Source of the DNA: Escherichia coli
GTDB taxonomy: Bacteria > Pseudomonadota > Gammaproteobacteria > Enterobacterales > Enterobacteriaceae
Direction: 5' to 3' (one strand)
Assembly (NCBI RefSeq): GCF_003334815.1
Contig: NZ_QOWO01000140.1
Length of the DNA stretch: 224 nt
Part shown: positions 1-224 of the stretch, piece by piece
Layout of the letters: each line of letters begins with the position of its first letter
Numbering within the stretch: the first letter of the stretch is position 1
Made by a program: the position numbers and the translations under genes
Notes under the pieces: model-generated
What the model saw: only the letters and a program-made list of their open reading frames with translations
Told to the model about the DNA's origin: nothing
Databases searched by the model: none

Positions 1-15
1 AATTTGAGAGACTCA

Positions 16-35
16 CGAACAACTTTCGTTGTTCA
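16..35 (-). other. Spacer RNA hairpin with GAAA (GNRA) tetraloop, 7-8 bp stem
   Basis: Plus 17-23 gaacaac is the exact reverse complement of plus 28-34 gttgttc. Loop is plus 24-27 tttc, which is GAAA in the minus-sense RNA. Positions 16/35 add a G-U closing pair in the minus-sense RNA. Confidence 0.5.
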
Positions 36-75
36 GTGTTTCAATTTTCAGCTTGATCCAGATTTTTAAAGAGCA

Positions 76-115
76 AATATCTCAAACATCACCCGAAGAT
101 GAGTTTTGAGATATT
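76..115 (-). other. Spacer RNA hairpin with UUCG tetraloop (extended stem, about 16 bp with a 2x2 internal loop)
   Basis: Perfect 11-bp inverted repeat: plus 76-86 aatatctcaaa pairs with 105-115 tttgagatatt. Inner stem 89-93/98-102 is 5 bp in the minus-sense RNA, including one G-U pair. Positions 87-88/103-104 form a 2x2 internal loop. Loop is plus 94-97 cgaa, which is UUCG in the minus-sense RNA. Confidence 0.6.
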
Positions 116-148
116 AAGGCAGGTGACTTTCACTCACAAACCAGCAAG

Positions 149-224
149 TGGCGTCCCCTAGGGGATTCGAACCCCTGTTACCGCCGTGAAAGGGCGGTGT
201 CCTGGGCCTCTAGACGAAGGGGAC
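149..224 (-). tRNA. gltW: tRNA-Glu (anticodon UUC), complete 76-nt gene with genomically encoded 3' CCA
   Basis: Reverse complement of 149-224 is GTCCCCTTCGTCTAGAGGCCCAGGACACCGCCCTTTCACGGCGGTAACAGGGGTTCGAATCCCCTAGGGGACGCCA. It folds as a cloverleaf: acceptor stem GTCCCCT/AGGGGAC (7 bp), D-stem GTCT/GGAC, anticodon stem CCGCC/GGCGG with loop CTTTCAC (anticodon TTC, plus-strand 188-190 as gaa), 4-nt variable loop, T-stem AGGGG/CCCCT with T-loop TTCGAAT (plus 165-171), discriminator G, then CCA (plus 149-151 as tgg). From memory this matches the E. coli rrn-operon tRNA-Glu. The four copies (gltT/gltU/gltV/gltW) are identical in the mature tRNA, so the copy cannot be resolved here. gltW is chosen only because it is the minus-strand copy in K-12 reference orientation; that assumes the window is in reference orientation. 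Confidence 0.95.

Follow-up and report, generated by a model that had tools for sequence, protein, structure and literature searches.

Introduction

The rrn operons of Escherichia coli carry a second, nut-like set of boxB, boxA and boxC elements upstream of 23S (PMC10250234, PMC8632103, PMC11404451), in which boxB lies upstream of boxA (PMC10250234) and boxA is where the rRNA antitermination complex nucleates (PMC10250234, PMC8632103). According to the model of Wahl, boxA bound to NusB/NusE at the RNA exit holds the leader strand until the trailer emerges, and in the same body of work structure is found to outweigh boxC sequence in the 16S leader-trailer helix, disruption of the pre-23S helix is found to harm 50S biogenesis, and leader-trailer helices are described as structurally diverse and interrupted by bulges and loops (PMC10250234, PMC8632103, PMC11404451). 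Covariation has been reported for 23S leader-trailer helices in general (PMC11404451). The pre-23S transcript is cut by RNase III at +3/+7 nt from the mature 5' end (PMC8708148).

The segment directly before 23S has also been described as a small RNA. StyR-44, an RNA of 109 nt that is processed from longer precursors, maps upstream of 23S in each of the seven operons; it gives a discrete, growth-regulated band on Northern blots of S. Typhi and E. coli, and its authors were unable to rule out a metastable intermediate of rRNA maturation (PMC2943607). Here we describe how a small hairpin between the spacer boxA and 23S compares with these systems.

Results

Location and orientation of the hairpin

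The window, by which we mean the whole stretch of 224 bases that was analysed, is a 16S-23S spacer from E. coli, of the type that contains tRNA-Glu, written as the reverse complement of the transcript. Matches of 100% identity were found in thousands of chromosomes of E. coli, with a median of 7 sites per genome, and all spacer copies in the ecoli_genomes collection were chromosomal except for ten that are plasmid-borne. Because the tRNA-Glu gene and the Rfam hits lie on the minus strand, and because the order in an annotated genome is 16S, tRNA-Glu, the window's spacer and then 23S, the RNA sense is the minus strand. The features discussed below are listed in the order in which they are transcribed.

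149-224, minus strand: tRNA-Glu(UUC) gene, from ARAGORN, Rfam and the annotated gene order
76-115, minus strand: boxB-like hairpin with a UUCG loop, upstream of boxA
63-75, minus strand: spacer boxA, UGCUCUUUAAAAA, read from the sequence and invariant in 7/7 K-12 operons
43-64, minus strand: leader strand 5' of the hairpin (AAUCUG, UCA, GCUGAAAAUU), predicted by cofolding and a duplex scan
39-42, minus strand: GAAA linker between the leader helix strand and the hairpin, predicted to be single-stranded
14-38, minus strand: full hairpin, CAC-U-GAACAAC-GAAA-GUUGUUC-GUG, from folding, the inverted-repeat arms and the Rfam model
24-27, minus strand: GAAA tetraloop of the GNRA class, with GAAA, GAGA and GCAA as E. 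coli alleles
5-11, minus strand: leader strand 3' of the hairpin (UCUCUCA), predicted by cofolding only
1-71, minus strand: match to the first 71 of the 109 nt of StyR-44, at 81.5 bits and E = 3.5e-13

Geometry, stability and chance expectation

The two arms of the stem, at 17-23 (GAACAAC) and 28-34 (GTTGTTC), are 100% complementary over 7 bp and are separated by a 4-nt gap, the tttc of the plus strand (24-27) being GAAA on the minus strand. The initial annotation had proposed a perfect 7-bp stem with a GAAA loop in the minus-sense RNA, placed near the 23S-proximal end of the spacer, and it was right on each point, including the sense of the RNA and the position, since 23S starts 45 nt beyond window position 1 in the annotated genome. 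Folding extended the stem by three pairs (14-16/36-38) beyond a bulged U (window 35), giving a full, non-coding element at 14-38 that occupies -83 to -59, counted from the 5' end of mature 23S, and lies 24 nt from boxA, on its downstream side. The loop is a four-nucleotide G-N-R-A closed by a C-G pair.

When the 1-50 region was folded in the RNA sense, as had been suggested as a check, the hairpin formed, with z = -2.33 for the 50-nt fold. Perfect stems of at least 7 bp were found in 155/2000 dinucleotide shuffles (7.8%) when loops of 3-8 nt were allowed, and in 29/2000 (1.5%) when the loop was set at 4 nt. Taken alone, the hairpin is just mildly unusual by the shuffle test, and we judge it to be real because it is conserved with compensatory change, as described below. 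The 7-bp stem had a pair probability of ~1.0 in the nascent, excised and duplex contexts, and the three basal pairs rose from 0.25-0.7 alone to 0.9-0.95 with the trailer present. Nearest-neighbour energies were also calculated for all 256 loops, and every G..A loop came out at -10.3 kcal/mol; since GACA and GAUA are among these equal loops, the energy model fails to explain a choice of GNRA over GNYA.

Alleles among E. coli operons and strains

All seven K-12 operons contain the hairpin, in Glu and Ile/Ala spacer types alike. The rrnB copy has a GAGA loop, the rrnG and rrnH copies carry a C-to-U change that converts the loop-closing C-G to U.G, and a GCAA loop is found in other E. coli strains. 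Alleles were counted in 5,426 genomes, containing 37,968 (~38,000) spacer copies, by megablast queries of 30-32 nt for which any mismatch in the central 26 nt was scored as no match. The GAAA loop was closed by C-G in 20,426 copies and by U.G in 4,254, GAGA was found in 11,836 copies and GCAA in 916, and a more divergent allele was found in 306 copies from 165 genomes. Together these five exact variants account for 37,738/37,968 copies (99.4%), so that an intact stem with a GNRA loop is present in at least 99.4% of E. coli copies, with loop shares of 66% for GAAA, 31% for GAGA and 2.4% for GCAA. The statement in the initial annotation that some rrn copies carry GAGA rather than GAAA therefore holds for K-12 rrnB and for the E. 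coli population, and the comparison of rrn copies that it called for found both the stem and the GNRA loop class among the paralogues.

The divergent allele, GAAUAGUC-GAAA-GAUUAUUC, matches the E. albertii allele exactly. In its stem, two C-G pairs have become U-A by double changes, one A-U has become G.U, and one pair has been added, whereas the GAAA loop is retained. The GNRA class is thus conserved in E. coli and E. albertii (at least 99.4%). The allele frequencies (GAAA, GAGA, GCAA and the albertii-type stem) may also serve as markers of rrn copies.

The hairpin is a helix of the StyR-44 family

The StyR-44 (RF01830) match in the window scores well above the gathering threshold of 54 bits, although its 3' end is cut by the end of the window and the remainder lies beyond position 1. 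At a genomic locus (L001, 754-862), the match spans 109 nt and model positions 1-107 of 107, scores 124.9 bits, and ends exactly 7 nt before the annotated 23S start. In 7/7 K-12 operons the 109-nt element lies directly upstream of 23S. RF01830 itself annotates the hairpin as one of its helices, with three pairs, one bulge, seven pairs and a 4-nt loop, so that the element is already known, both from an Rfam family and from the rrn spacer that has been studied best. The initial annotation had missed this catalogued family, and also that the flanks of the hairpin are the predicted leader strand of the pre-23S processing helix.

Since the 124.9-bit match ends 7 nt before 23S and the published RNase III cuts are at +3/+7, the 3' end of StyR-44 corresponds to the -7 site, and this coincidence suggests that StyR-44 is a discarded leader fragment. 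The family and the window differ in two respects. The consensus loop of the family is uAAa, whereas the loop of the E. coli window is GNRA, and in the Rfam structure a local helix, GCUGAAAAUU/AAUUUUCGC, closes off the hairpin, where our prediction has long-range leader-trailer pairing. The local helix and the leader-trailer pairing compete for the same leader strand.

Hairpins at the same position in other genera

Representative genomes were scanned with a pattern anchored on the spacer boxA region in which the hairpin was left free, giving at least 120 loci, and the inserts between the conserved blocks AAGCUGA... and ...AGUYUCUCAA were compared. The nearest genera sampled were Enterobacter, Citrobacter, Shimwellia, Serratia, Brenneria, Photorhabdus and Xenorhabdus, with no Salmonella or Klebsiella among the loci listed, those two genera being covered by the Rfam consensus only. 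The matches listed comprised 76 unique inserts from 51 species, of which 70 folded with z < -2; these inserts are mutually unrelated in sequence, are 27-94 nt long and form one or two hairpins each. Hairpins of unrelated sequence, length and loop were present in 46/51 of the species among the matches listed, and UNCG loops in 10/51. The loops of Enterobacterales outside Escherichia were, among the matches listed, GCUCA, UUUAU, UUUAAU, CCGUAAUA, UUUACU, ACCGA, GCCGA, GACAA and GAAU. The remaining 5/51 species among the matches listed had no hairpin (Aeromonas, Zobellella, Moritella, Zophobihabitans and Ferrimonas), and in these taxa the same flanks enclose 10-25 nt at the hairpin position.

Compensatory change was evaluated in sets of related inserts. 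In an alignment of Escherichia and Enterobacter (A3), 96.2% of the cells were paired, compared to 77.5% in shuffles and 24-48% when the partners were slid. Changes on both sides were seen at 7/10 pairs in this alignment and at 5/16 pairs in a Photorhabdus/Xenorhabdus set, counts that rest on few independent lineages and are indicative rather than a strict test. As judged from these sequences, a hairpin at this position is conserved, and its sequence and loop class vary between genera.

These results separate two ideas that had been joined in the initial annotation, which looked to related species for conservation of both the stem and the GNRA loop class. The hairpin is kept, with compensation, but outside E. 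coli and E. albertii the GNRA class is not, being found in only 7/51 species among the matches listed, and its proposed standing as a functional feature is not supported, given its loss in the nearest genera sampled and the Rfam consensus loop. Likewise, the suggestion of a structured role in the precursor gains from the presence of the hairpin in all paralogues and from the compensatory changes in its stem, while the part of it that was specific to GNRA is unsupported.

The inserts also vary within single genomes. The rrn copies of Photobacterium alginatilyticum (L104-L113) carry at least nine different inserts, whose loops include GAAA, GCGA and UUCG, and a short and a long version of the hairpin occur in a single genome of Vibrio marinisediminis (L033-L034).

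Flanks of the hairpin and the leader-trailer helix

The E. coli leader, from boxA to 23S, was cofolded with the 3' flank of the 23S gene of the same operon. The 23S-5S spacer sequence ...GAUGAGAGAAGAUUUUCAGCCUGAUACAGAUU... was the predicted partner of window positions 64-43 and 11-5, and the hairpin remained local. The predicted partner of the 5' flank lies ~3 kb downstream, in the 23S-5S spacer, and the predicted partner of UCUCUCA, which belongs to the widely conserved AGUYUCUCAA block, is a trailer GAGAGA that adjoins the partner of the 5' side segment. Since the trailer partners of both flanks adjoin each other, the hairpin is predicted to form a bulged branch. The same succession of intermolecular, local and intermolecular pairing was obtained in cofolds for Vibrio, Enterobacter, Citrobacter, Photorhabdus, Xenorhabdus, Shewanella, Grimontia and Pseudoalteromonas, and in Moritella and Zophobihabitans, which are without the hairpin, the leader paired continuously. 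Downstream of AGCUGA the leaders differ, and in the cofolds each has a complementary trailer (AAAUU in E. coli, UAAAUA in Pseudoalteromonas and AUAAAUAAAGA in Moritella).

An unbiased duplex scan was then made over ~3.45 kb of downstream sequence. The best partner of the left flank (20-22 nt) was located just before 5S, and it fell in the 23S-5S spacer in 23/23 distinct long loci from 14 species, with duplex energies of -16 to -24 kcal/mol there, compared to -11 to -18 kcal/mol elsewhere. The right flank (12-13 nt) is a short segment, and its best partners were mostly inside 23S, around +1730. The scan was thus indecisive for UCUCUCA, and the pairing of the right flank with the trailer is a prediction of the cofolds alone. 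Complementarity between leader and trailer is a property of the flanks, and the hairpin is predicted to be a local branch rather than a strand of the helix.

The pairing, a thermodynamic prediction like the junction that it implies, runs from beside the 23S ends to the last two A's of boxA (the 23S-5S spacer being locus L129). The pre-23S leader-trailer helix is usually quoted at ~30 bp, next to the 23S ends (PMC8782170), and the predicted outer extension far exceeds this length. We also observed that UUGAAAC (39-45, minus strand) is nearly invariant in Enterobacterales with unrelated hairpins, though the linker is predicted to be unpaired.

Other elements of the spacer

The hairpin was compared to the named elements of the nut-like set. 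It does not qualify as boxB, since it is located downstream of boxA, and the boxB-like hairpin is the one at window 76-115. Nor does it qualify as boxC; UCUGUGUGGG has no match at the hairpin, and when up to three mismatches were allowed the sole match, at 131-140, was at chance level (156/200 shuffles).

Two other parts of the spacer vary among the K-12 operons. In rrnG, the apical half of the boxB-like hairpin (window 76-115) is swapped for another self-complementary sequence, and the Ile/Ala operons have an unrelated hairpin at that position. A variant that is 9 nt shorter, with ACUCUGAAGUGAAAC in place of ACACGAUGAUGAAUCGAAAGAAAC, is present in rrnG and rrnD; this site is the small local hairpin nearest to 23S, ~20-40 nt before it, and corresponds to columns 159-175 of alignment A1, beyond window position 1.

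A second small hairpin, GUGA-GUGAAAG-UCAC, follows tRNA-Glu at a distance of 18 nt (minus strand, window 123-137, with its loop at 127-133). Its 7-nt loop, GUGAAAG, is exactly complementary to the tRNA-Glu anticodon loop CUUUCAC (window 186-192) and is invariant in 15 distinct Glu-type spacers from eight genera of Enterobacterales. The stem covaries, with both sides changed at 7/9 pairs, and 0/500 shuffles matched its covariation score. The hairpin is absent from Aeromonas, Zobellella and Zophobihabitans, a search of the window returned no Rfam match at this site, and a brief literature search found no paper on it. A kissing loop between this hairpin and tRNA-Glu, in its precursor or mature form, is purely hypothetical. 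We considered an analogue for tRNA-Ala. In the Ile/Ala spacers of E. coli (K-12 L002/L004/L006), the boxB-like hairpin that directly precedes boxA has a UGCAAA loop complementary to the anticodon loop of tRNA-Ala(UGC). Conservation of this loop did not extend to the sister genera Enterobacter, Citrobacter, Serratia, Photorhabdus and Rahnella, and the analogue was therefore rejected as probably due to chance.

Discussion

A probable side branch of the pre-23S leader-trailer helix

The results are best accounted for, and in our judgment probably so, if the hairpin is a self-folding and evolutionarily variable side branch of the pre-23S leader-trailer helix. In the predicted structure, a three-way junction is formed in the outer part of the leader-trailer helix on which RNase III processing takes place, where the trailer strand would run straight through and the leader strand would bear the hairpin as a bulged branch. 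The hairpin may form as it leaves the polymerase, with the stable tetraloop aiding nucleation. By pairing with itself, it would hide 25-90 nt of otherwise free sequence and set two leader segments side by side, and these segments would stay available while ~2.9 kb of 23S is transcribed. RNase III would then cut at -7 and the hairpin would be discarded with the spacer fragment. Selection would then act on the ability to fold, and on neither the sequence nor the loop class, so that the GNRA loop of Escherichia would be one of several stable loop solutions.

The proposed insulating and juxtaposing role fits the published model in which boxA delivers the leader, and the enrichment of GNRA and UNCG tetraloops fits selection for quick and stable local folding. 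Any benefit of the branch is dispensable and could be near neutral, since five taxa among the matches listed are without the hairpin. In addition, the three common loop alleles of E. coli are all GNRA, which is not required by a pure model in which any stable hairpin will do.

Alternative roles for the hairpin

That last observation bears on whether the GNRA loop of Escherichia is itself functional, either by docking in a helix minor groove or receptor of the nascent pre-50S particle or through recognition by a protein, for instance an assembly factor or a component of the antitermination complex. The class is kept in at least 99.4% of ~38,000 copies, the GAGA and GCAA alleles are altered at N and R alone, a GAAA loop persists on the divergent stem of the E. 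albertii type, and the nearest-neighbour model leaves the lack of common GNYA alleles unexplained. GNRA loops are, however, unusually stable and would be favoured without any partner, and since 4 of the 12 possible single changes stay within GNRA, two such alleles would be expected by chance with a probability of roughly 0.1. A GAGA share of 31% speaks against a GAAA-specific 11-nt receptor. The class is also lost in the nearest genera sampled and in the Rfam consensus (uAAa), five taxa among the matches listed do without the hairpin, and ten species among them have UNCG at the same position, a loop for which we know of no tertiary docking. We therefore regard a contact made by the Escherichia loop as unlikely, and a GNRA-specific contact beyond the genus level is not supported. 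A related idea, which also seems to us unlikely, gives the position right after the leader strand next to boxA a function within the spacer nut site. A fast-folding hairpin there would be read either by an early 50S assembly factor or by the antitermination complex, for instance through the S4/NusA lid of the RNA exit ring, and in Escherichia the GNRA loop would be required for this. If this were true, it would explain why three alleles in ~38,000 copies have all stayed GNRA.

The remaining alternatives concern the fragment that contains the hairpin, or the DNA that encodes it. The hairpin might be a determinant of processing or decay, by blocking exonucleases or positioning an endonuclease for clearance of the spacer, a role that we consider quite improbable. 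Stable tetraloop hairpins commonly impede 3'-5' exonucleases, but a 10-bp stem alone is too short to be a substrate for RNase III, the hairpin is internal to StyR-44 rather than at either end, no RNase has been tied to it, and the hairpin-less taxa among the matches listed share the same flanks. It is nevertheless the case that the host fragment accumulates to levels sufficient for cloning and Northern blots (PMC2943607). The discrete, growth-regulated StyR-44 band in S. Typhi and E. coli would also be consistent with a trans-acting sRNA of which the hairpin is a module, such as a stabilizing or target-binding stem-loop (PMC2943607), and the stem probability of ~1.0 is maintained in the excised 109-nt fragment. 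We think this very unlikely, given that the StyR-44 authors themselves leave a maturation intermediate possible (PMC2943607), that the 3' end of StyR-44 coincides with the RNase III -7 site, that no StyR-44 target is known, and that the hairpin sequence is hypervariable from genus to genus, and even among the operons within a genome, which is unexpected for target recognition. There is, finally, very little to recommend a signal in transcription, whether an intrinsic terminator, a pause hairpin or a promoter-associated palindrome. The arms do form a perfect DNA palindrome that can fold on either strand, but a scan of the window found no terminator-like or promoter-like sites on either strand, and the site lies just after boxA, within a highly processive antiterminated operon. 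An intrinsic terminator was rejected in particular, as the G+C-rich stem followed by a U-run that defines one is not seen here; a U-run is absent after the stem.

Implications

As a discovery, the hairpin carries little weight, since it is part of an Rfam model and lies in one of the most-sequenced spacers in biology. What is gained is a clearer description of it, as a fixed-position branch beside the strand that boxA is thought to deliver. Mutagenesis of the pre-23S leader has been considered worth revisiting (PMC10250234), and the hairpin would offer a cheap and well-defined target for such work, in which swapped loops, flipped stems and a clean deletion would all follow natural variants.

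Comparison with known systems

The closest described relative is StyR-44, with which the window agrees in a match that begins at model position 1, in the layout of the helices, in location in the seven operons and in the length of 109 nt. Compared with leader-trailer helices and their boxC elements, the flanks of the hairpin likewise come just past boxA and, in each of the genera that were tested, complement the trailer, whereas the E. coli hairpin itself is predicted to be a local branch outside of the intermolecular helix. With the GNRA tetraloops of rRNA, group I and group II introns and RNase P, the hairpin shares a G-N-R-A loop closed by C-G and alleles that vary only at N and R. Functional GNRA loops, however, normally keep their class over wide phylogenetic distances and have an identifiable receptor, in contrast to the hairpin, whose class is lost in the next genera and for which no receptor is known. 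The likeness to the stem-loops of 16S-23S spacers that are used in strain typing, and more loosely to rRNA expansion segments, lies in a fixed insertion point between conserved blocks. As in the hypervariable spacer stem-loops, the content of the hairpin varies by species and by operon and is always self-complementary. In contrast to expansion segments, this branch would leave with the discarded spacer and never become part of the ribosome.
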